From: a bacterium
GTDB taxonomy: Bacteria > RBG-13-61-14 > DATKZS01
DNA length: 64,000 nt
Assembly (NCBI GenBank): GCA_963674965.2
Contig: CAXXFL010000002.1
Coordinates: 512,001-576,000 of the forward strand
Direction of reading: 5' to 3'
The position numbers and the translations under genes are program-made. Below the pieces are notes generated by a model. The model was not told the origin of the DNA, made no database searches, and saw only the letters and a list, made by a program, of their open reading frames with translations. Positions within the stretch are counted from its first letter, which is position 1, and the number at the start of each line of letters is the position of its first letter. This document shows positions 30,716-58,654 of the stretch, piece by piece.

Positions 30716-31564
30716 ATGAATTGGTGTCCCTTTTGCGGCAGGAACGTCAACCAGGGGGCGAGGGTATGCCCTCATTGCAAAAGAGACCTGGGCTCCATTT
30801 TCAATCCGGGAGGCGGGACCTCCGGGGCGGACGCCCCTTTCGCGCCACCGGACTCAAGGGAGACGCCTCAAGTGCGGACCGATCCCGCCGCTCCCTTTCC
30901 ACCTCCGCCGCCTCCCCCGAGGCCGCAGACGCTTAACTCCGCTTTTCCCGCCGGCTTCGCGCAAAATCATTTGGCCCCTCCCCCGGCCAAGAACGAGACC
31001 CTGGCCATGGTCTCGCTTATCCTGGGGATTCTGGGGTTCTGCACTTACGTCACTGGAGCCATAGCCATCATTACCGGCCTTATGGCCCTTTCCAGGATTA
31101 AAAACTCGGATGGGCGCCTTTTGGGCCGCGGTTTCGCCATAGCCGGCGTCTCCTGCGGGTCCATTTCGTTCCTTCTTTATACCGCTGGAGTGATCGCAAG
31201 TCTCGCCGTTCCCCAATACCTTCATCATAAGTTCAACGCCGCCGAGCGGGAGGCGGCGGGCAATCTCCAGGAGATATACGAGGAGCAGGCGCACTTCGAG
31301 GTCATGAACGGAAGGTACGCCAATTCCTTTACCGAGTTGGACTGGTACCCGGAAGGGTCCACCAGGTACGCCTATTTCCTGGTTACCGAACAGTTCCAGC
31401 CCGACTCGGGGGGACCCTACGAGCTTCCCTGGGACGTGGACACCTACGCCCGTGACAAGGCCTTCAGGGCGGTGGCGGTGGCCAATCTGGACGACGACCC
31501 CGACTTGGACGTTTGGATCGTGGACGAGGAGGGGGTCCCCAAGCACATCGACGTCGACCAGTAG
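30716..31564 (+). CDS. Zinc-ribbon, Pro-rich, DUF4190 and type IV pilin-like head domain protein
   Basis: CPFC..CPHC; PPPPPP; LAMVSLILGIL..GLMALSRIK..GRGFAIAG (DUF4190); LAVPQY..EAAGNLQEIY..RYAY..AVANLDDDPDLDVWIVD. Confidence 0.75.
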   Translation: MNWCPFCGRNVNQGARVCPHCKRDLGSIFNPGGGTSGADAPFAPPDSRETPQVRTDPAAPFPPPPPPPRPQTLNSAFPAGFAQNHLAPPPAKNETLAMVSLILGILGFCTYVTGAIAIITGLMALSRIKNSDGRLLGRGFAIAGVSCGSISFLLYTAGVIASLAVPQYLHHKFNAAEREAAGNLQEIYEEQAHFEVMNGRYANSFTELDWYPEGSTRYAYFLVTEQFQPDSGGPYELPWDVDTYARDKAFRAVAVANLDDDPDLDVWIVDEEGVPKHIDVDQ

Positions 31565-49116: not shown

Positions 49117-50616
49117 ATGAACGAAGCGGAGAAAAAATCTTTCGCTCCTGACGATCTTCCTCTTGTCTGCGAGGGATTGGACCTCATGAGTCTCAACGTG
49201 ACCCCCGAGGAGGGCTTCCTCTTGTCCCGCCTTGACGGGACCACCTCGGTCGGGGTACTTTTTCGGTCGACCGGGCTGGGCGAGGAGAAGACCGCTACCC
49301 TTTTGGCCTCCCTCATGGCCAAGAACATCGTCATCATGAAGGGAGTGACCTATTGTCAGGACCGGCCCGGGCCGGAAAACGGGGACGGCCATGAGGCGGC
49401 AAGCCCCGAGGCCGGCGAAGATACGGATGAATTCGACGACGACGAGGCCGCCGGCGAGGAAGAAGGGGAGGATAATGGCTTAAGCGAGGGCGAAAATTCC
49501 CAGGTCTTGCGGAAACTGAAAATGGCGCTTAGAAAAAAACAGCTTCCCAAGGGCCCCGAGCTTTTGGCCATAGTGGAACAGACCTTTGTAAACCTCGAGA
49601 ACTTAAGCTATTATGACCTGTTGGGAGTTCCGGTCGCCTCCGAGTTCAAGGAAATAAAAAAGTCATACCTGAGGAGGACGAAGTCGTTTCATCCCGACAG
49701 GTTCTATAGAAACGCGGACAAGCAGCTCGTCAAGCACGTTCAGGAGATATTCAAGCAGCTTAATAAAGGATATAAAGTACTCGCGGACGCCGAGAAAAGA
49801 GGCGAGTACGACAAGTCGCTCGACGAGGAGGAAATGTGGCTCAAGCACGAGCTGGCCGACGAGGAGGAAACCATAACCACCAGCCGTACCAGGTCGGTTA
49901 AAGGCGATTCCTCCCCCTGGAAGCGGATCAGGGTGTCCAGGCAAAAACCCATCGAGGAGAAAACAAGAAAGAAAAAGAAAAAAGAGGAAAAACCAAAGGT
50001 CGAGGGACCCAAGCTGAAACTGGGGCTGAAAGACGGGAAGTCGGCCTCCCCCCTGCTCAAGAAGATTCACGAGATGAAGGAGAAAGAGCAAAAGACTTAC
50101 GACGAGCAGGCCGAGCGCTTCTATCGGGGGGCCATGGTGGAAAAAGACTCGGGCAATATTAACGCGGCGAGGAACAACCTCAAGCTGGCCCTTCAATACA
50201 GCCCGGGAAATAAAAAATACTTAGGGGCCGTCGAGGAACTTGAACATTTCGAGTCATCGAGAAGGGCCGAGACGAGCTTCAAGTCGGGCATGAAGGCCCA
50301 TGACGCCGGCGATCTGAAGCAGGCCCTGAAGGACTATCGCGAAGCGATAAGGTTGGGTTATGAAAATTCTCTGCTATATAATAAAATGGCCGAGTTGATA
50401 ATGGAGCTGGAAGGCAATTACGAACTGGCTCGCTCGCTCAGCCTCAAGGCGATCGAGAAGCAGCCCGAGGCCGTCGATTTCCGCATGACCCTGGCCAGGG
50501 CTTACAAGGGGCTGGGACAGAAGGCGGCGGCCATGGTTCAGTTTAATAAAGTATTGGAGATACAGCCGAAAAACAAGCTGGCAATCAAGGAGCTGAAAGC
50601 ACTAAAGCGCGGCTAG
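49117..50616 (+). CDS. J-domain (DnaJ-like) protein with C-terminal TPRs
   Basis: YYDLLGV..IKKSY..FHPDRF J-domain in mid-protein; N-terminal TPEEGFLLSRLDG block; TPR repeats. Confidence 0.85.
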   Translation: MNEAEKKSFAPDDLPLVCEGLDLMSLNVTPEEGFLLSRLDGTTSVGVLFRSTGLGEEKTATLLASLMAKNIVIMKGVTYCQDRPGPENGDGHEAASPEAGEDTDEFDDDEAAGEEEGEDNGLSEGENSQVLRKLKMALRKKQLPKGPELLAIVEQTFVNLENLSYYDLLGVPVASEFKEIKKSYLRRTKSFHPDRFYRNADKQLVKHVQEIFKQLNKGYKVLADAEKRGEYDKSLDEEEMWLKHELADEEETITTSRTRSVKGDSSPWKRIRVSRQKPIEEKTRKKKKKEEKPKVEGPKLKLGLKDGKSASPLLKKIHEMKEKEQKTYDEQAERFYRGAMVEKDSGNINAARNNLKLALQYSPGNKKYLGAVEELEHFESSRRAETSFKSGMKAHDAGDLKQALKDYREAIRLGYENSLLYNKMAELIMELEGNYELARSLSLKAIEKQPEAVDFRMTLARAYKGLGQKAAAMVQFNKVLEIQPKNKLAIKELKALKRG

Positions 50617-50626
50617 GAGGATACTT

Positions 50627-52453
50627 ATGGGCAAGGTAATTGGAATAGACCTGGGCACGACTAACTCTTGCGTCTCGGTGGTCGAGAACGGGCAGCCGAA
50701 GGTGATACCGAACAAGGGCGGGTACAAGATCACTCCGTCCATGGTGGCCTTCGAGGAGGGCGGCCGGCGCCTGGTGGGCCATCTGGCCAAGCGGCAGATG
50801 GTGACCAATCCGAAGAACACCATCTACGGCACCAAGCGCCTGATCGGCCGGAAGTTCGATTCCCCCGAGGTCAAAAAGGCGCTGGCGTCGTATCCGTACC
50901 AGATCATCGAGGGACCCCATTACGACGTTCGACTCCTGGTGCAGGGCAACGAGTTCAGCCTTCCCGAGATAGGGGCCATGGTCCTGCAGGAGATGCGGAC
51001 CGTGGCCGAGGAATACCTGGGCGAGCCCGTGCAGGAGGCGGTGGTGACCGTGCCCGCTTACTTTAACGACAACCAGCGGCAGGCCACCAAGGACGCCGGC
51101 CGGATAGCCGGGCTCGACGTCCTGCGCATCATCAACGAGCCCACCGCCGCCGCCCTCTCCTACGGCTACGGCAAGAACATTGACCAGACCGTGGCCATCT
51201 ACGACCTTGGCGGGGGCACCTTCGACGTCTCGGTGCTCGAGATATCGGAGGGGGTCTTCGAGGTCCTTTCCACCGCGGGCGACACCTACCTGGGAGGGGA
51301 CGATTTCGACGACCGCATAATCGACCACCTGGCCGAGAGCTTCCAGCGGAACACGGGCGTGAACCTTCGCCGCGACAAGATGGCCCTCCAGCGGCTCAAG
51401 GACGTGGCCGAGAAGACGAAAATGGAACTCTCCGAGGTGGCCCAGAGCGAGGTCAACCTTCCCTTCGTGGCCATGGGTGAGGACGGTCCTCTCCACCTCA
51501 ACCTGGTGGTGACCCGCGAAAAGCTCGAGGAGATCACCATGGACCTCGTCGAGCGGACCCTCAGCATCTGCGACAAGACCCTCGAGGCCGGCAGTCTCAA
51601 GCCCGAGGACATCGACGAGGTCATACTGGTGGGCGGACAGACCCGCATGCCCCTGGTGGCGGCCAAGGTCGAGGAATTCTTCGGGCGGGCCCCCAGGAAG
51701 GGAGTGCATCCAGACGAGGTGGTGGCCATGGGCGCGTCCATCCAGGGCATGGTCCTGGCCCAGGCCGCCGAGGCCGAGGAAGGGGAAGACGACGAGGACA
51801 GGGACGAGCTTCTCCTTCTTGACGTCACGCCCATGTCCCTGGGCATCGCCACCTTCGGCGGCTTCTTCACCAGGATCATCGAGAGGAACACCACCATTCC
51901 CACCCACGCCTCCCATATCTTCACCACCGCCGCCGACAACCAGACCTCGGTCAAGATACTGGTGCTGCAGGGAGAGTCGGACCGGGCGGCCGAGAACGAG
52001 CTTCTCGGCGAGTTCATGCTCACGGGCATCCGTCCCGCCAAGCGCGGCGAGCCCGAGATCGAGGTGACCTTCGACATCGACGCCGACGGCATCGTCAGCG
52101 TCTCGGCCAAGGACCTGGACACGGGCCAGGAGCAGTCCATTACCGTCACCGCCAGCTCGGGCCTGACCGAGCAGGAAATCCAGTGGATGGTGGACGCCTC
52201 GAAGAACTACGAGGTCGAGCTCAAGTCCAGGGAGGAAATCGAGAAGGCCTGCCAGAAACTCGAGGGCATGGTCCTCAAGCTGGAAAAGGAACTGCACGGA
52301 AAAAAGGACGACCTGCCCCGCGAGCTGGCGAGCGCGGCCAAAAAAGCCATCGAGTCGTCCCGGCGGGCCATCGAGTTCGGCGATATGGCCGAGGTAAGGC
52401 GCTTCACCGACGACATCCCCTCCCTCATCGAGAGGGTCCAGTCCGGAGGATAA
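50627..52453 (+). CDS. dnaK: Hsp70/DnaK family chaperone (probable paralogue)
   Basis: GIDLGTTNS, TVPAYF, NEPTAAAL, DLGGGTFD, LVGGQTR, LLLLDVTP, FDIDADGI. Confidence 0.9.
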   Translation: MGKVIGIDLGTTNSCVSVVENGQPKVIPNKGGYKITPSMVAFEEGGRRLVGHLAKRQMVTNPKNTIYGTKRLIGRKFDSPEVKKALASYPYQIIEGPHYDVRLLVQGNEFSLPEIGAMVLQEMRTVAEEYLGEPVQEAVVTVPAYFNDNQRQATKDAGRIAGLDVLRIINEPTAAALSYGYGKNIDQTVAIYDLGGGTFDVSVLEISEGVFEVLSTAGDTYLGGDDFDDRIIDHLAESFQRNTGVNLRRDKMALQRLKDVAEKTKMELSEVAQSEVNLPFVAMGEDGPLHLNLVVTREKLEEITMDLVERTLSICDKTLEAGSLKPEDIDEVILVGGQTRMPLVAAKVEEFFGRAPRKGVHPDEVVAMGASIQGMVLAQAAEAEEGEDDEDRDELLLLDVTPMSLGIATFGGFFTRIIERNTTIPTHASHIFTTAADNQTSVKILVLQGESDRAAENELLGEFMLTGIRPAKRGEPEIEVTFDIDADGIVSVSAKDLDTGQEQSITVTASSGLTEQEIQWMVDASKNYEVELKSREEIEKACQKLEGMVLKLEKELHGKKDDLPRELASAAKKAIESSRRAIEFGDMAEVRRFTDDIPSLIERVQSGG

Positions 52454-52774
52454 TAAGCGCCTCGGAATTGACGGGAAAACGGGCGGCCATTGCAAGGCCG
52501 TCCGTCCAAAGAATCATGCGACCTCACCGGCCTCAACTCCTTTCTCGGCCAGTGGCTCGCAGGCTCACTCCCGGCCGGGCCGAACGATCAATGCATCCAG
52601 ACCTTAAACTTGACCAGCCTCGTAATGCAGCAGAGCTTTTTGTTTTGAAAATTATAGGAACGTCACTTCTTATTACTTGTCAGTTGGTTGACCAAACCCT
52701 TAATATATCGTCTATTTTATGCCGATATCATCTCAATTGAGTTTGGGGGAAAATTTGAATTTTATTCCCGCTAG

Positions 52775-52958
52775 AGCCTCTTGCAAAAGTCCCGCTTTGG
52801 AGTGCGGCGGCTCGACGCCGCTTTTCTTCCGAGCGGCTTGACGCGAGGCTAGCCGTTGTATTCTTAGGCCTTGTCAAGCCAAAGCCATCGAAAGCGCTCT
52901 CAAGCGACCACAATCCAAAGCGGCTATGCCTCAAAGAAAGGGACTTTTGCAAGAAGCT
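52775..52958. repeat. 184-bp MITE/REPIN-like palindromic element
   Basis: Outer IR AGCCTCTTGCAAAAGTCCC / GGGACTTTTGCAAGAAGCT (18/19 match); inner imperfect IR 52792-52824 vs 52891-52923; central GGCTTGAC/GTCAAGCC. Confidence 0.7.
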
Positions 52959-53276
52959 TGCTACATACATTTTTTCTCCACTTTTGAGAACAAGTTACAA
53001 ATTGTGTCCCTTTGGCAAAATATGATACTTCAAATCGTCTGGAGGACAGACTGCATTATTTCGCGGGACGCCCGCGGTTTACCCACCTTTCTTACATTTT
53101 ACCTACCCGTGTAATTTTCTTCATTCATATTGAGACCGGCCTGGCGGGGGCGGCAAGAAGATAAATACATTAATTAACCGATGCTTGCGCTTTCATTTCA
53201 CGGGTCGGCGCCGGGGTTGCTATTAAGAGGGAGTGAAAGGAAGAAACACTTTAGCCCCGAACCTGGGAGGTGAAAA

Positions 53277-56200
53277 ATGGAGCGTTTTATCAAGCCGGTC
53301 CTGAATCTAATCCTCTATGCCATTGCCGCTACGGTTTTTATCGGCCTTTGCGTCGCGGGCGCCCGGGCCGAGGAGGTCCCCGAGGTCGGATCGGACCCGG
53401 CGGCCAGGGCCGGGGCCCCCACCGGCTCGGTCAAGATGTCCCTCGAGCAGTATGAGGAGTTCATGAAAAAGGTGGAGGCGAAAAAAGAGGGGCCGGATAT
53501 GGGATCGCCGCCGGGGCCCGTGATCGAGAGCGTCCATATCGAGGCCGAGACCTCGGGCGGCCAGATCGAGGCGAGAGCGAAAGTCAAAGTCTACGCGCCG
53601 GGGAAAAATCCGGGAGCCCTGAGACTTTTCCAGGACTCTCCCGACTTCGCGGTCACCTCCTTTGAAGGCTCGGTCGAGAGCATGGCGCGTGACCCGGAGG
53701 GCAAGGGCTATTTCGCGCTTTTCGGGGAGCCCGGCCATCACGAGTTCTCCTACTCGATGAGCGCTTCCCTCAAGGACGCGGGCGACGGGCTAGAGGCGTC
53801 GCTTCCCATTCCCAAGGCCACCGCGGGATCGATCAGGCTGGTTCTGGACCAGGCCCGCTCCGTCCAGATAGTCCCCTCCTTCGGCGCGGAAGAGAAGGAC
53901 CTGGGGGAGGCGGTCGAGGTCTTCGCCCGTCTTTCGCCCACCGAGTCGGTCGCGATCCGGCTGGGCAAGGCGCCGTCGGAGCCTTACTCGTTCAGCCGCT
54001 CCGCATACGAGGCCGCGATCATCGAGGACGGGCTCTCGGTCTCGGCGCTGTTGGACCTGACCGTGCACTCGCGGGACGGGCGCGGCGTCAAGCTGGCCGA
54101 CGGCTCGGTGGCGCTCAGGTCGGTCACGGTTAACGGCTCTCCTTACCCGGTCAAGCTGAAAGACAAGGCCTTCGTGGCGGACGGCCTGAAAGCCGGGACC
54201 TACAAGGTGGCGGCCAGTTGGCTTCAGCCCATCAACGAGAGCCAGGCCTCGAGGTGGGTGGCGGTGCCCCTGATAGCCTGTCCCATCTCGAGCTTTGCCG
54301 CCTCGGCCCCCGGCGAGTCTCTCAACATGGAGATAGTACCCGGCCTGGCCCGGGTAGTGGACGCCTCGAAGGGCCGCACCACCACGCGGGTGAGCCTGCC
54401 CATGACCGACGAGGTCAAGATCGCGTGGACGGAAAAGCCCCCCGAGACGCGCAAGCTCAAGGCGGCCGAGGAGGAAGTCCCCCGGACCTACCTCGAGACC
54501 TCCTCGGTCATCAAGGTGGACGAGGGATTGATGTCCGTCGAGACCGAGCTTTCCTACTCCGTTTTGCGCGGCGAGATCGCCAAGGTTTCCTTTTCCCTGC
54601 CCAAGTCGGTCGAGGTGATGAGCGTGGAGGGAAGCTTCGTCAAGGACTGGGAGCAGGAGAACGAGGATGACGAAAGGACCTACCAGGTCTATCTGGACCG
54701 CAAGGTAAAGGGTGACTACAAGCTCCGGGTCTCCTATGAAGGGCTGCTCGAGGAGTTCCCGGCCGAAGCCATCGAGGCGCCCCGCCTGACGCCCCGAGAG
54801 GTGGAGCGCGAGAAGGGAGTGATATTTATCGAGCGCAGTCCGGACCTCGAGATCAAGACGGTGAAGACCGAGTCCCTCCGGCGCCTGGACGGGCAACGGA
54901 GCGGTGGAAGAAGCGCCCTTTACGCGCTCCAATACATCAAGGCTCCTTACGAACTGGTTCTTTCCGTGGGTTTGAAGCCGGCCCTTGATCCCGAGGTCCA
55001 CGTCGAGACCTCGACCCTGGTGACCGTGTCCGACAACGTCATATCCGCGGCGGCCAATCTGGATTATAAGGTGCTGAACGCGGGGGTGGACTCCTTTCGC
55101 CTCGGTTTTCCCGGCGACGTGAAAATCACGGCCATTCGGGGCAGGGACGTGCAGAGCCAGACCCGGACCAAGGAGGGCGATCGGACCGAGGTCCTGGCGC
55201 GTCTCGAGCGCCCGGCCATGGGCCAGTACCGGCTGTACGTCGAGTACGAACGGGCCCTGTCCCCGTCGGAGAAGGTGGCGGCGGTCCCCCTTGCCGATCC
55301 CATGGGCGTCAGCTCGGCCGAGGGTTTCGTGGGCGTCGCGGCCAGACACAACGTCGAGGTCCGGGACAAGGAGGAGCTGAACCTGCGCCAGATAGACCCG
55401 AGCCAGCTTAGGGGGGCCCTGTTCGACCTGTCCGAGAGTATGATCCTGCGCGCCTATTCCTACTCCTACATGTCCGGCGTGGACAAAAGGCCCGTCCTGT
55501 CCTACTCGGTCTTGCGCCATCAGGACGTGGCGGTGCAGGACGCCTATATAGACGAGGCCAGGTACCTGACCCTGGTGAGGTCCAACGGCTTCTCCATCAC
55601 CAAGGCCGTGCTGTCGGTGCGAAATAAAAACCGACAGAACTTAAAGCTCACGCTGCCGGAGGGTTCCGAGCTGTGGAGCGCCTTTTTGGCGGGCGAGCCG
55701 GTGCCCCCCGCTCGGGACGAGAACGGCGCCGTGCTCATTCCCCTGCCGCGCTCGGACCTGGGCTCGGGCGGGCGTCACGCCAACTTCCCCGTCGAGGTGG
55801 TTTACAAGACGGCCATCGACGAGATAGGGACCAAGGGCAAGCTGGACCTGGTCCTCCCCCGCGCCGACATCGTCGTGGGCAAAGCCGTGTGGCAGCTATA
55901 CCTTCCCCTGGACAAGTTCTTTATCGAGTTCGGAGGGTCCATGGGGGAGGGCATGATCGAGCAGAAGTCCGGCCGGGACGTGGCCGCCGAGTTGGGAGAG
56001 TTCGCCCTGTCCCTCTCGGGCAACTTTCTCAAGTTCCAGGCCAAGGCCAAACAGAGCGAGGCCAAGAGCAACCTGGGCGCGGTCTTCACCTCCCAGGCGG
56101 CGCACAAGGCTGAGTTCGGCCGCTTCGCCCGCGACTTCAAGGAGTCCGGCTGGGCCCCTGAGGGCAAGACTCAATACACCTACATCATGGGCTCGGACCG

Positions 56201-56786
56201 TATAGCGGGAATGAAGGAGGACCTTGGCGACATGCCCGGCATCGAGGGGGCCAGGGTGGACGACGACCACTTCCTGGTCCTGGCGGTGGGAAACGTGGAT
56301 AACGACTCCTTCCTCGATATCTGGGTCATCGACGAAAACAAGAAGCTTATAAACCTCGCCAACGACGCCACCGACTCCTATGACAAGCGCTTCGAGGAGT
56401 TCAAGGAAAAGGGATACTTCAACCAGTGGGACCTGGCCCAGATGGAGTACGTGCAGGAACACATGCGGCAATCGGAAATCCGCGGGCTTTTATCGCTTCG
56501 GATCGACGTTCCCACCAAGGGGCAACTGGTGAGGTTCGAGAAGCTCTTTCCCGGCGCCCAGGGGGAGGAACTGCGCGTGATGGCGAGCTACATGCCCGAC
56601 ATTATCGGCAAGGTCGCGAACGTTTTCGCCAAGGCCGTGGCCCTGGGCATCGCCGCGGGCCTTTTTGTTCTCGCGGCCCTGGCGGTCCGGCGGACGGAGA
56701 AGCTGGGATGGGTTAGACGACACTGGTGGCTCACCATTCTTATAGTGATCGCGGCGCTTATTTTGGCGCTCAGGCTGTGGGGATAA
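53277..56786 (+). CDS. Large exported membrane-anchored protein with repeated beta-rich domains and an embedded type IV pilin-like head
   Basis: GGAGGTG RBS; signal peptide; internal repeats starting at 54480 and 54990; pilin-like segment 56022-56366; two C-terminal TM helices. Confidence 0.75.
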   Translation: MERFIKPVLNLILYAIAATVFIGLCVAGARAEEVPEVGSDPAARAGAPTGSVKMSLEQYEEFMKKVEAKKEGPDMGSPPGPVIESVHIEAETSGGQIEARAKVKVYAPGKNPGALRLFQDSPDFAVTSFEGSVESMARDPEGKGYFALFGEPGHHEFSYSMSASLKDAGDGLEASLPIPKATAGSIRLVLDQARSVQIVPSFGAEEKDLGEAVEVFARLSPTESVAIRLGKAPSEPYSFSRSAYEAAIIEDGLSVSALLDLTVHSRDGRGVKLADGSVALRSVTVNGSPYPVKLKDKAFVADGLKAGTYKVAASWLQPINESQASRWVAVPLIACPISSFAASAPGESLNMEIVPGLARVVDASKGRTTTRVSLPMTDEVKIAWTEKPPETRKLKAAEEEVPRTYLETSSVIKVDEGLMSVETELSYSVLRGEIAKVSFSLPKSVEVMSVEGSFVKDWEQENEDDERTYQVYLDRKVKGDYKLRVSYEGLLEEFPAEAIEAPRLTPREVEREKGVIFIERSPDLEIKTVKTESLRRLDGQRSGGRSALYALQYIKAPYELVLSVGLKPALDPEVHVETSTLVTVSDNVISAAANLDYKVLNAGVDSFRLGFPGDVKITAIRGRDVQSQTRTKEGDRTEVLARLERPAMGQYRLYVEYERALSPSEKVAAVPLADPMGVSSAEGFVGVAARHNVEVRDKEELNLRQIDPSQLRGALFDLSESMILRAYSYSYMSGVDKRPVLSYSVLRHQDVAVQDAYIDEARYLTLVRSNGFSITKAVLSVRNKNRQNLKLTLPEGSELWSAFLAGEPVPPARDENGAVLIPLPRSDLGSGGRHANFPVEVVYKTAIDEIGTKGKLDLVLPRADIVVGKAVWQLYLPLDKFFIEFGGSMGEGMIEQKSGRDVAAELGEFALSLSGNFLKFQAKAKQSEAKSNLGAVFTSQAAHKAEFGRFARDFKESGWAPEGKTQYTYIMGSDRIAGMKEDLGDMPGIEGARVDDDHFLVLAVGNVDNDSFLDIWVIDENKKLINLANDATDSYDKRFEEFKEKGYFNQWDLAQMEYVQEHMRQSEIRGLLSLRIDVPTKGQLVRFEKLFPGAQGEELRVMASYMPDIIGKVANVFAKAVALGIAAGLFVLAALAVRRTEKLGWVRRHWWLTILIVIAALILALRLWG

Positions 56787-56830
56787 GCGGGTAAAGGGCT
56801 CGAGGCCGGCGGAAAGATCGGAGGTCTCCA

Positions 56831-57757
56831 ATGAACGAATGGGAAGCCGACATGCAAGGCAAGCGGGACGCCCACGAGGAAGAGGAAGCGATATTTGGTC
56901 TCGCGGACGCGGGGCGGGCCGCCATGAATAACCCGGATGACGAAGAGTGGATGGACTTCGAGAGCGCCGAGGCGATAAGGCGAGGCGAGCTTTCCGCCGA
57001 AAGGCGCCGGGCCTTTACGGAGTCGGCGTCCTTGTTCCTGGTCTTTCTCGGGATCATGTGGCTGATGGAGGGAAGCTGGATTCAGACCCTGCAGCTAAGG
57101 GCGGTGGGATGGAACTTTATCGCCCATCTCGTCCTGCTCTTCCTGCCCGTCGTCTCGATCATCGCCTCGCGTCGGCCGTCCGCCGACTTGGGCGTCAACC
57201 TGAAAGACCTGGCCAACCCGGAGGTCCGCAAGGTGATGAACCTGGCCGTGGCCGAGCTGGCCCTTATCTGGGCCGCCTTCATCATGGTCCCCGGCCTGGT
57301 AAGCGGCCTTCGGCCGTCCATCATCGTGCCTCCCGCTCACCTGGTCAGGCTGGACTGCGTTCCGGACGAAATCGGCCAAATGGCGGGGTACGCGCTCACT
57401 CTCGTTTTCATGACCTTTTTTTACGGGCTTGGAAGCGAGGTTTTTTATCGCGGAGCCATTCAGGGCGGGCTGAACCGGGCCTTTGGCAAACCCTGGCGCT
57501 TCCTTCGCGTCAACTTCGGGCCGGGCCTCCCCCTGGCCGCTCTTTTTTACGTGATCGGCCAGTCCTCGATAATCTATAACCCCTTTGTGAGCGAGCCCTC
57601 GACTTTTACGGCCGATCCCCTGGCGGTGGGCGTGACCGCGGGGGAGGGGTTGATACTCGGCTACCTTTACGAAAGGACGGGAGGGGTCCTCGCCCCGGCG
57701 GCCCTGCACGCGGCGGCGGGCATCCTTTTCTTCGGACTCGAGTTCCTGTCCATGTAA
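56831..57757 (+). CDS. CPBP (CAAX/Abi) family intramembrane protease-like protein with degenerate motifs
   Basis: SEVFYRGAIQ (EExxxR), LYERTGGVLAPAALH; multiple TM segments. Confidence 0.7.
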   Translation: MNEWEADMQGKRDAHEEEEAIFGLADAGRAAMNNPDDEEWMDFESAEAIRRGELSAERRRAFTESASLFLVFLGIMWLMEGSWIQTLQLRAVGWNFIAHLVLLFLPVVSIIASRRPSADLGVNLKDLANPEVRKVMNLAVAELALIWAAFIMVPGLVSGLRPSIIVPPAHLVRLDCVPDEIGQMAGYALTLVFMTFFYGLGSEVFYRGAIQGGLNRAFGKPWRFLRVNFGPGLPLAALFYVIGQSSIIYNPFVSEPSTFTADPLAVGVTAGEGLILGYLYERTGGVLAPAALHAAAGILFFGLEFLSM

Positions 57758-57868: not shown

Positions 57869-58654
57869 ATGGCGAGACATTTGCAAATAGGCGCGATGGC
57901 GTTATTGACGTTGGGCTTTTTACTCCCGAGCATTCCCGCGGCGGCGGACTCGAGCTGGAAGGAGAAGACGGTGATCACCCTCACGGTCGGCGCCACGGTC
58001 GAGACCCTGAGCGAGTCCGAGCAGTCCGTGTCGCTTAAGGAGAACGTGGCCCGGATCGACGACCTTAAATCCGGGGTGGCCCGGATAGTGAATTTTCAGA
58101 CCCGGCAGGAGATCATCCTGAATTTCGGGGCCAAGACCTTCGCCTTGCTGAGCGTGTCCGAGATGATGCAAATGGACAAGGAGAACAGGGAGCAGATCAA
58201 GGCGGACCTTCCCGCCAGGGAGGCGGGGCTTTCGTCCGTGCCCGAGTCCGAGCGGGCCAAGGTCGCCGCCCAGATCGAGGCGCAAAAAAAACGGTTCCAG
58301 GCCTGGGAAGGCGGCTATCTGGTGACTCCCACCGACCGCGTCGAGACCATCGACGGATACACCTGCAAACTCTACCAGGGACTGTCAAAGGGAGAGGTCT
58401 TCCAGGAATTGTGGGTGGCCGAGAATATCCAAATGGGAGACGACTACGGAAGGTTCTATAAAAAAGGAATGGCCGAACTCGAGCCCTACGACTCGGCATA
58501 TCTTATGCACCTGCCCAGCCCGCCCATCAAAACCGTGACCCACTACGGGGCCGTGACCGTGACCAAGACGGTCTCCAGGGTACTTACCGAAAAGTTCCCC
58601 ATCGACGCCCTGCTTATACCGGAGGATTTTAAACCGGCCCAGACCATCAGATGA
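57869..58654 (+). CDS. Secreted protein, DUF4412-like
   Basis: Signal peptide; TDRVETIDGYTCKLY..ELWVA..LLIPEDFK pattern. Confidence 0.6.
   Translation: MARHLQIGAMALLTLGFLLPSIPAAADSSWKEKTVITLTVGATVETLSESEQSVSLKENVARIDDLKSGVARIVNFQTRQEIILNFGAKTFALLSVSEMMQMDKENREQIKADLPAREAGLSSVPESERAKVAAQIEAQKKRFQAWEGGYLVTPTDRVETIDGYTCKLYQGLSKGEVFQELWVAENIQMGDDYGRFYKKGMAELEPYDSAYLMHLPSPPIKTVTHYGAVTVTKTVSRVLTEKFPIDALLIPEDFKPAQTIR

Follow-up and report, generated by a model that had tools for sequence, protein, structure and literature searches.

A leaderless type IV pilin head embedded in a 1169-residue membrane-anchored protein

Type IV pilins are defined by a leader peptide and a hydrophobic helix, and they are regarded as filament subunits. 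In modular type IV pilins, the pilin module stands at the N-terminus, keeps its class III signal peptide and polymerizes, and the extra module follows at the C-terminus. The gene described here lies in a 64,000-nucleotide window of a bacterial genome (assembly GCA_963674965.2, contig CAXXFL010000002.1, positions 512,001 to 576,000) and encodes P0001, a protein of 1169 residues that carries a pilin head internally, without a leader and some 900 residues into the chain. Two further systems are close to it. The split pilin of Geobacter sulfurreducens is reported to draw its α1 helix and its head from two genes (10.1101/2023.07.22.550172). Archaeal FlaF is described as a non-polymerizing, membrane-anchored protein with a helix and a β-rich head, proposed to anchor its machine to the envelope (PMC4425475).

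The genome (6.5 Mb, 7 contigs) belongs to an uncultured lineage. The nearest relatives of its HslU come from unclassified metagenome-assembled genomes (MAGs; 70–76% identity), with Deltaproteobacteria/Thermodesulfobacteriota at 61–64%. It also encodes a canonical PilA of 149 residues with a GFTLIEL leader. An earlier annotation made from the letters of the window, here called the sequence-only reading, had proposed a non-polymerizing pilin head displayed on an envelope scaffold, possibly as a pilus anchor, regulator or phage-receptor decoy. The present analysis follows up on this proposal.

The embedded head and its origin by insertion

On the level of sequence, identity alone makes the case for a pilin head. 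Pilin_PilA (PF14245, gathering score 28.5 bits) is the sole significant Pfam family in the whole protein (37.3 bits, E 4.2e-9, residues 920–972), and the head segment by itself reaches 44.1 bits, in a match that spans only about positions 1–50 of the 136 in the profile. The NCBIfam equivalog typeIV_PilA_Myxo (NF041775) matches residues 907–973 with 52.8 bits and the segment alone with 60.2 bits, neither of which reaches its cut-off of 400 bits. Among PDB sequences, the sole significant match is Myxococcus xanthus PilA (8tj2, E 8.4e-13) in two stretches, one comprising the helix and first strands and the other, a weak one (7.4 bits), the C-terminal GN.DN...D.WVI motif. Residues 30–148 of the genome's own PilA share 59 of 121 positions with the embedded segment (49% identity, BLASTP E 2e-33), an alignment that covers the entire head.

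Structure prediction agrees with this assignment. An AlphaFold2 (AF2) model of residues 896–1070, based on 27 aligned sequences (mean pLDDT 86.1, pTM 0.77), consists of a 46-residue helix and a subsequent β-sheet, with the α1-C helix packed on antiparallel strands. Foldseek places 8tj2_A at the top (E 4.9e-6, probability 1.00) and type IV pilins throughout ranks 1–12, with E≤0.001 for rank 1 only; the pilin fold was partly expected because the folding alignment included real pilins. The head postulated by the sequence-only reading is therefore found by profile, by comparison with PilA structures and by comparison with the genome's own PilA.

The segment has nonetheless lost the hallmarks of a filament subunit. 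It contains no class III leader (G-F-T-L-I-E), and in the alignment to 8tj2 the equivalent of mature residues 1–9, including Phe1 and Glu5, is missing. Neither a signal peptide with Gly(-1), Phe/Met(+1) and Glu(+5) nor a hydrophobic α1-N is present. The stretch in register with PilA residues 10–22 reads VAAELGEFALSLSG. Over the 14 residues equivalent to α1-N, the mean Kyte–Doolittle hydropathy is 1.03 with two charges, whereas the three canonical pilins of the same genome reach 2.60–2.85 and are uncharged there; across all five embedded copies, each with 2 charged residues, the mean lies between -0.20 and 1.49. At the position of Pro22, P0001 has Gly. Two of the orthologues described below, P0006 and P0008, keep Pro, and their remnants are more hydrophobic, as expected had an entire fragment of a pilin gene been inserted first and become polar later. 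Residues 896–1070 hold no cysteine, against four in the genome's own PilA, and a disulfide-bonded C-terminal (D) region is lacking. The absence of leader and FTLIEL helix and the non-polymerizing form had both been described from the sequence and are confirmed here. We infer that the embedded head is unable to enter a filament core.

Comparison with related proteins shows how this architecture arose: a PilA-type pilin that lacked its leader and first ~9 residues was inserted between the last of five β-sandwich units (A–E) of a scaffold and a conserved C-terminal strand pair, and its α1-N part turned polar after insertion. In an alignment of 12 sequences (A2), the five pilin-bearing and seven pilin-less proteins have in common the signal, the entire scaffold, the strand pair '..LRI.VP..G....F.KLY..' and two transmembrane (TM) helices. 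The pilin-bearing proteins possess about 170–190 extra residues, located between the W872-x-x-x-L-P877 strand and P1079. P1079 is invariant and G1082 at least 90% conserved in A2, and both are at least 90% conserved in a larger alignment of 52 sequences (A3). Since the strands also occur in pilin-less members, the suggested insertion in a variable loop before GLLSLRIDVP holds.

In a HMMER search, only four further representative clusters align through the C-terminus, namely P0005 (1147 residues, 46% identity), P0006 (1246), P0007 (973) and P0008 (656). All four, which stem from different collections, carry Pilin_PilA at the equivalent site, three above the cut-off and P0007 below it (24.9 bits), and none of the 16 other family members scanned does. 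P0007 and P0008 begin with signal peptides of their own and contain fewer N-terminal units, which leaves units D–E, the pilin, the C-terminal strand pair and the TM hairpin as the constant core. Two of the orthologues belong to genomes of the same class (G012) and the same order (G009) as the window's genome; a scan of named genomes returned one full orthologue only, in an 'uncultured bacterium' MAG. No part of the five proteins is better conserved than the head, which has a mean pairwise identity of 0.51 and 31 invariant positions out of 121; units D–E (0.40), the N-terminal units (0.26–0.29) and the post-head helices (0.24) come after it. It is under strong constraint in every orthologue found.

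An assembly chimera was considered and is ruled out by the orthologues with the same architecture and by contigs across the junctions. Logan contigs of two runs contain 55500–56900 within a single 8583-nucleotide piece with 0 differences and even depth, so that the coverage across the domain boundaries, a point raised by the sequence-only reading, is unbroken. Both runs come from one sample, which may be the source of the window, and therefore give no independent confirmation; identical fragments were obtained from another sample of the same study. A decaying relic, that is, a pilin pseudogene read through inside a larger frame, or any other artifact is barely conceivable. No support for it was found apart from the rarity of the pilin-bearing form (5 of the 150 best family representatives), and it is contradicted by the orthologues from other assemblies, the high conservation of the head and the open frame.

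A phylogeny of the heads (27 rows, 126 columns) has an unresolved backbone and distributes the embedded heads over three groups; as far as the tree goes, a single origin of the embedded heads is neither shown nor excluded. One of the groups joins a 722-residue protein of the same genome with support 98/98. This protein, encoded in G012 (L024, 1891–4056), starts like a lipoprotein and ends in a PilA-type head (Pfam 34.9 bits), whose grouping with the P0007 head suggests head exchange or duplication within G012.

The layout of P0001 is given in Table 1, and frame, strand and coordinates are those of the sequence-only reading. The β-rich repeats that it had placed 170 residues apart are real: PRTYLETS (residue 402) starts unit C and PEVHVETS (residue 572) starts unit D, and the two units share 27% identity across 151 residues (blastp E 1.4e-15; hhalign probability 99.9%). 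A comparison by hhalign also relates units A and B to each other (99.8%). Hydropathy detects three hydrophobic segments in the whole protein, one N-terminal and two C-terminal; the AF2 helices at 1108–1139 and 1150–1168 agree with two C-terminal membrane anchors. For the proposed Sec signal, the hydrophobic segment is there, but cleavage at A-R-A is read from the motif alone. The full-length AF2 model (52 sequences, mean pLDDT 82.5) proceeds from an all-β part (82–895) over the pilin helix and sheet and two short helices to two strands and two long helices; its domain arrangement is uncertain because pTM is only 0.39. Based on the N-terminal signal and the C-terminal hairpin with its basic connecting loop, the whole ectodomain is predicted to be periplasmic, and the head, about 75 residues from the first TM helix, would lie near the outer face of the inner membrane.

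Table 1. Features of the pilin-bearing gene and its product, in window coordinates
Feature	Residues	Position	Strand	Basis or remark
Whole open reading frame (P0001)	1169 residues	53277..56786	+	frame open throughout
N-terminal signal-like hydrophobic segment, A-R-A at 29–31	1–31	53277..53369	+	hydropathy segment 4–31; cleavage inferred from motif
All-β scaffold, five related β-sandwich units A–E	80–895	53514..55961	+	
Units C (401–570) and D (571–740), the 170-residue repeat	401–740	54477..55496	+	blastp
Solubilized remnant of pilin α1-N helix	899–915	55971..56021	+	in register with 8tj2 residues 10–22
PilA-type pilin head, α1-C and β-sheet	916–1036	56022..56384	+	profiles, BLASTP, fold
Post-head helices and linker, part of the insertion	1037–1077	56385..56507	+	AF2 helices 1037–1044 and 1054–1066; absent in pilin-less members
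Conserved C-terminal strand pair (GLLSLRIDVP...FEKLFP...)	1078–1107	56508..56597	+	AF2 strands 1083–1090 and 1100–1107
TM helix 1 of C-terminal hairpin	1113–1140	56613..56696	+	hydropathy, AF2; followed by basic loop RRTEKLGWVRRH
TM helix 2	1146–1169	56712..56783	+	hydropathy, AF2

The scaffold family, other pilin modules and gene surroundings

The scaffold belongs to a large family of proteins without functional names. An exhaustive HMMER search of 1.84 billion representatives returned 4695 matches at E≤1e-3 and 801 at E≤1e-30. Typical members have 1000–1050 residues and align to about residues 40–890 of the query, and a second size class of 2100–2600 residues contains 4–6 matched stretches. 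P0001 is a member by its full-length similarity, signal, β-sandwich units, strand pair and two TM helices. The four named clusters are all 'hypothetical protein' and come from a Kangiellaceae MAG, a Verrucomicrobiota MAG, an unclassified bacterium and a JGI record. Neighbors in the ESM Atlas are unnamed clusters, with Acidobacteriota and Verrucomicrobiota as the most frequent sources, and the family as a whole includes Acidobacteriota, Verrucomicrobiota, Planctomycetota-like, gammaproteobacterial and delta-like lineages. The pilin-less members scanned have no Pfam or NCBIfam match. With the full protein as query, a word-indexed search returned just two relatives, both distant and partial, and a search of the segment against longer proteins found only itself.

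The top Foldseek matches of the scaffold are Ribophorin I/Ost1 of eukaryotic oligosaccharyltransferase, which has a tandem β-sandwich lumenal fold and a C-terminal TM anchor, and the N-domain of the M1 aminopeptidase/leukotriene A4 (LTA4) hydrolase, with TM-scores of 0.20–0.28, a root-mean-square deviation of ~20 Å for Ost1 and generic immunoglobulin-like arrays ranked closely behind; the scores are low because the domain arrangement differs. No sequence signal of Ribophorin_I, the Pfam family of Ribophorin I/Ost1, appears at E≤1. The family profile (A3) matched no oligosaccharyltransferase subunit, and nothing below E 0.7, among PDB sequences. Against a viral structure library, the full model matched generic β-sandwich arrays only. 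The resemblance to Ost1 and the aminopeptidase N-domain is one of fold only and uninformative on function.

In several genomes, shorter pilin-less paralogues of ~570–780 residues form adjacent or overlapping tandem pairs, as at L018 3927–8524 (C5:431926–436523 of the window's genome, G000), L019, L009, L010 and L023. No other conserved neighbor accompanies these pairs. The giants of the family look like fusions of two pilin-less units.

Other members of the family contain pilin types of a different kind. A custom profile built from nine segments detects, among the 150 best family representatives, a pseudopilin-like module of the form 'R-[KR]-G-x-x-G, hydrophobic helix ..LAGMLLPAL[SA]KAK.., NNLKQIG..Y..DN..FP ... 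ADGSV' in 26 proteins, comprising 21 of the 57 with at least 1900 residues, 5 of the 15 with 1400–1900 and none of the 78 shorter ones. Three segments were typed, and their best match in the curated library was always a pilin or pseudopilin family, in each case below the cut-off: GspG for two (30.3 and 25.7 bits) and Myxo-PilA for the third (27.3 bits; its GspG 19.5). DUF1559 (23.1 against 23.3 bits) and H-X9-DG (15.4 against 19) were also below their cut-offs. P0017 contains a full GspG domain (residues 1077–1204, 106.7 bits, curated cut-off 88.85). Any match at E≤1e-3 was obtained for 4 of 20 giants scanned. P0012 and P0011 score 94.7 and 51.4 bits against the Amuc_1098 type IV pilus outer-membrane family, short of its cut-off of 750. 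P0009, P0017, P0019 and P0142 are among the giants (1400–2600 residues) with an internal pseudopilin-like or GspG module.

The order in the giants is scaffold, TM helix, pilin α1-N as second TM helix, head, one or more further TM helices and second scaffold; in contrast to P0001, the insertion point is a different one and the membrane helix is retained. In P0009 and P0142, a basic cytoplasmic loop is followed by a preserved Gly(-1)/Glu(+5)-like pattern, so that internal cleavage by prepilin peptidase is conceivable. As the giants carry other pilin types at another insertion point with the membrane helix kept, the family gained pilin modules independently at least twice and probably three times.

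Leaderless heads are also frequent within the window's genome. PilA-type heads occur in 17 proteins (phmmer, all open reading frames (ORFs) of at least 90 residues), of which 14, including P0001, are leaderless; a motif scan found the G-F-T-[LV]-I-E leader in 3 of the 16 other head-bearing ORFs. The other leaderless heads are anchored by a plain N-terminal TM helix, by a zinc ribbon with a TM helix or DUF4190, or by two N-terminal TM helices combined with a C-terminal one after a C-x-x-C-P-W motif. This last subgroup has two tandem genes at C6:51161–52754 and one at C7:901078–901761; further head-bearing examples lie at C6:458108–459214 and C4:194088–194906. The window itself harbors a second leaderless-head protein at 30716–31564 (+), a 282-residue ORF that combines a weak N-terminal double zinc ribbon with the membrane helices of DUF4190 (49.3 bits) and, at the C-terminus, a PilA-type head (phmmer E 2.1e-14). 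Similar leaderless heads are found in Myxococcaceae and Pseudobdellovibrionaceae MAGs. The filament machinery of the genome comprises one prepilin peptidase, 14 matches to T2SSE ATPases and two secretins. This T2SSE set is unusually large for a genome of 6.5 Mb, and six of its members are in frames of about 590–910 residues.

The loci examined for gene context were the gene itself, the two orthologues with context and the pilin-less paralogues, and no conserved partner gene was found across them. Upstream in the window (49117–52453, +), a DnaJ-domain/TPR protein (499 residues) directly precedes an Hsp70 (608 residues). A terminator-like hairpin (52804–52821) and an 820-bp AT-richer gap (GC 0.48) follow, for which reason the DnaJ/Hsp70 genes are probably not co-transcribed with the pilin-bearing gene; Rfam gave no match at E≤0.1 in the gap (52300–53400). 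Downstream, a CPBP/Rce1-like intramembrane protease gene (56831–57757, +) starts 45 nucleotides past the stop and is followed by the gene of a DUF4412 secreted protein (57869–58654, +). Both may be co-transcribed with the pilin-bearing gene. In G009 the CPBP gene does not follow the orthologue, and the contig of G012 breaks off too early to show it.

Possible roles of the embedded head

We tentatively favor the view that the head is a built-in pilin mimic which does not polymerize and through which the scaffold is coupled to a type IV filament machine. It would sit where the heads of unassembled pilins sit, by the outer face of the inner membrane, and would dock there onto partners that recognize pilin heads, such as other pilins, minor pilins or the assembly platform, and thereby link the scaffold with the machine. 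The view is preferred because the same scaffold independently took up Planctomycetes–Verrucomicrobia–Chlamydiae (PVC) pseudopilin-like, GspG and secretin-N-like pieces in other lineages, and because the surface of the head is strongly constrained. The filament machinery of the genome also counts for it.

Several observations weigh against a mimic. Type IV filament genes adjoin none of six loci for which most flanking ORFs were Pfam-scanned (window, L018, L019, L020, L021 and L023), and the single flanking ORFs of L009 and L010 are not filament genes either. The architecture is patchy, as it is present in 2 of 12 same-class genomes searched (G009 and G012) and in none of 4 same-family genomes (95–97% complete). 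From the M. xanthus inter-subunit salt bridges, eight residues can be mapped, and four are kept or conservatively replaced (R30 to K, K37, E53 and E69); some of the kept ones are reportedly also needed for pilin stability. Most of the PVC-type matches rest on our self-built profile, and the 13 other leaderless heads on unrelated anchors would, from their sequences, fit a general-purpose periplasmic domain equally well. A complex prediction of the embedded head with the genome's own mature PilA (residues 8–149) scored 0.00, which is no evidence either way.

Such a general-purpose domain is the basis of an alternative that we consider possible, if doubtful, in which the head is a co-opted periplasmic binding or structural module, for instance for a glycan, exopolysaccharide or cell-wall component, with no remaining tie to filament machines. 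The scaffold would then serve an unrelated purpose, to which the head would only contribute a surface for ligand binding close to the membrane. The many leaderless heads on diverse anchors in this genome, their counterparts in the Myxococcaceae and Pseudobdellovibrionaceae MAGs and the lack of pilus genes nearby at the loci examined all point in this direction, as does the resemblance of the scaffold units to non-catalytic domains of proteins that handle glycans or peptides, namely Ost1 and the M1 aminopeptidase with its N-domain. The M. xanthus PilA head is also reported to bind exopolysaccharide in isolation (PMC12691611). Within the weak 7.4-bit stretch, the counterpart of Trp146, the residue named in the title of that study (numbering taken to be that of the prepilin), is Met979 in a loop of low confidence, so that this binding determinant does not appear to be kept here. 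Co-option also leaves unexplained why one scaffold family holds three pilin types and secretin-N-like segments.

The head might instead be added as the last subunit at the pilus base, stop extension and tether the fiber to the scaffold. Nearly the whole α1 is kept (AF2 helix 899–947, in register with PilA residues 10–53), the predicted place near the inner membrane is the site of subunit addition, and FlaF offers the precedent of a non-polymerizing, membrane-anchored superfamily member that anchors a machine (PMC4425475). Such a terminator is nevertheless improbable: Phe1 and Glu5 are absent and α1-N is of low hydrophobicity with two charges in all five embedded copies, so packing into a hydrophobic filament core is hardly possible, and P0001 has Gly in place of Pro22. 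As a phage-receptor decoy, a role also named by the sequence-only reading, the displayed head would titrate pilus-specific phages; what speaks for it is the general idea that pilins serve as phage receptors. We hold this role to be very unlikely, since the organism is a diderm, as its secretins indicate, and the predicted topology places the head in its periplasm, close to the inner-membrane hairpin and out of reach of phages.

Going beyond the single protein, the mimic could be extended to the family: the scaffold would be an unrecognized accessory component of type IV filament machines, of type IV pili (T4P) or similar to the type II secretion system (T2SS), in several phyla. The capture of three pilin types (Myxo-PilA without the membrane helix, PVC pseudopilin-like and GspG) would then reflect direct contact between scaffold and pilins, and the embedded modules would nucleate, cap or tether a filament. 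We rate this generalization as rather unlikely.

Comparison with described systems

The pilin fold and the pilin family are known; the architecture and its generalization are new. In the literature searched, which included few subscription journals and no supplements, we found neither a leaderless pilin head in a larger envelope protein nor the scaffold family. The uniqueness claimed by the sequence-only reading therefore stands as to published descriptions, but leaderless heads are common in this genome and the scaffold family holds other pilin types as well. Here, a pilin head is strongly constrained without leader or hydrophobic helix, as an internal domain of another protein. Taken together with the pseudopilin and GspG modules in distant members of the scaffold family, this suggests that pilin heads may have a second life as non-polymerizing periplasmic modules. 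It likewise suggests a possible tie between type IV filament systems and a large family of uncharacterized envelope proteins. As a soluble domain with known relatives, the head provides a handle (bait) for assigning a function to the scaffold family.

Of the described pilins, M. xanthus PilA (8tj2; PF14245) shares with the embedded head its fold, sequence homology, the α1-C helix and the C-terminal GN(I/V)DND...D.W.I motif. The embedded head differs in lacking leader, Phe1/Glu5 and cysteines, in its polar α1-N and in its position ~900 residues into a protein. It is also free of the insertions that enlarge the M. xanthus head, and the model aligns with 130 of 208 chain residues. The 149-residue PilA of the same genome is closer to the embedded head than M. 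xanthus PilA is.

Modular type IV pilins likewise join a pilin module to another domain in one polypeptide. In P0001 the order is reversed, and the pilin is internal, unprocessed and leaderless. The Geobacter split pilin is similar in that a pilin head is uncoupled from the hydrophobic α1-N; its two chains reassemble as a filament subunit, whereas the head of P0001 is covalently part of an unrelated scaffold. FlaF can be set beside the favored pilin mimic by description only, as a functional analogue. It is small, anchored at its N-terminus and encoded in the archaellum operon, unlike P0001, a large protein whose gene no filament genes adjoin.

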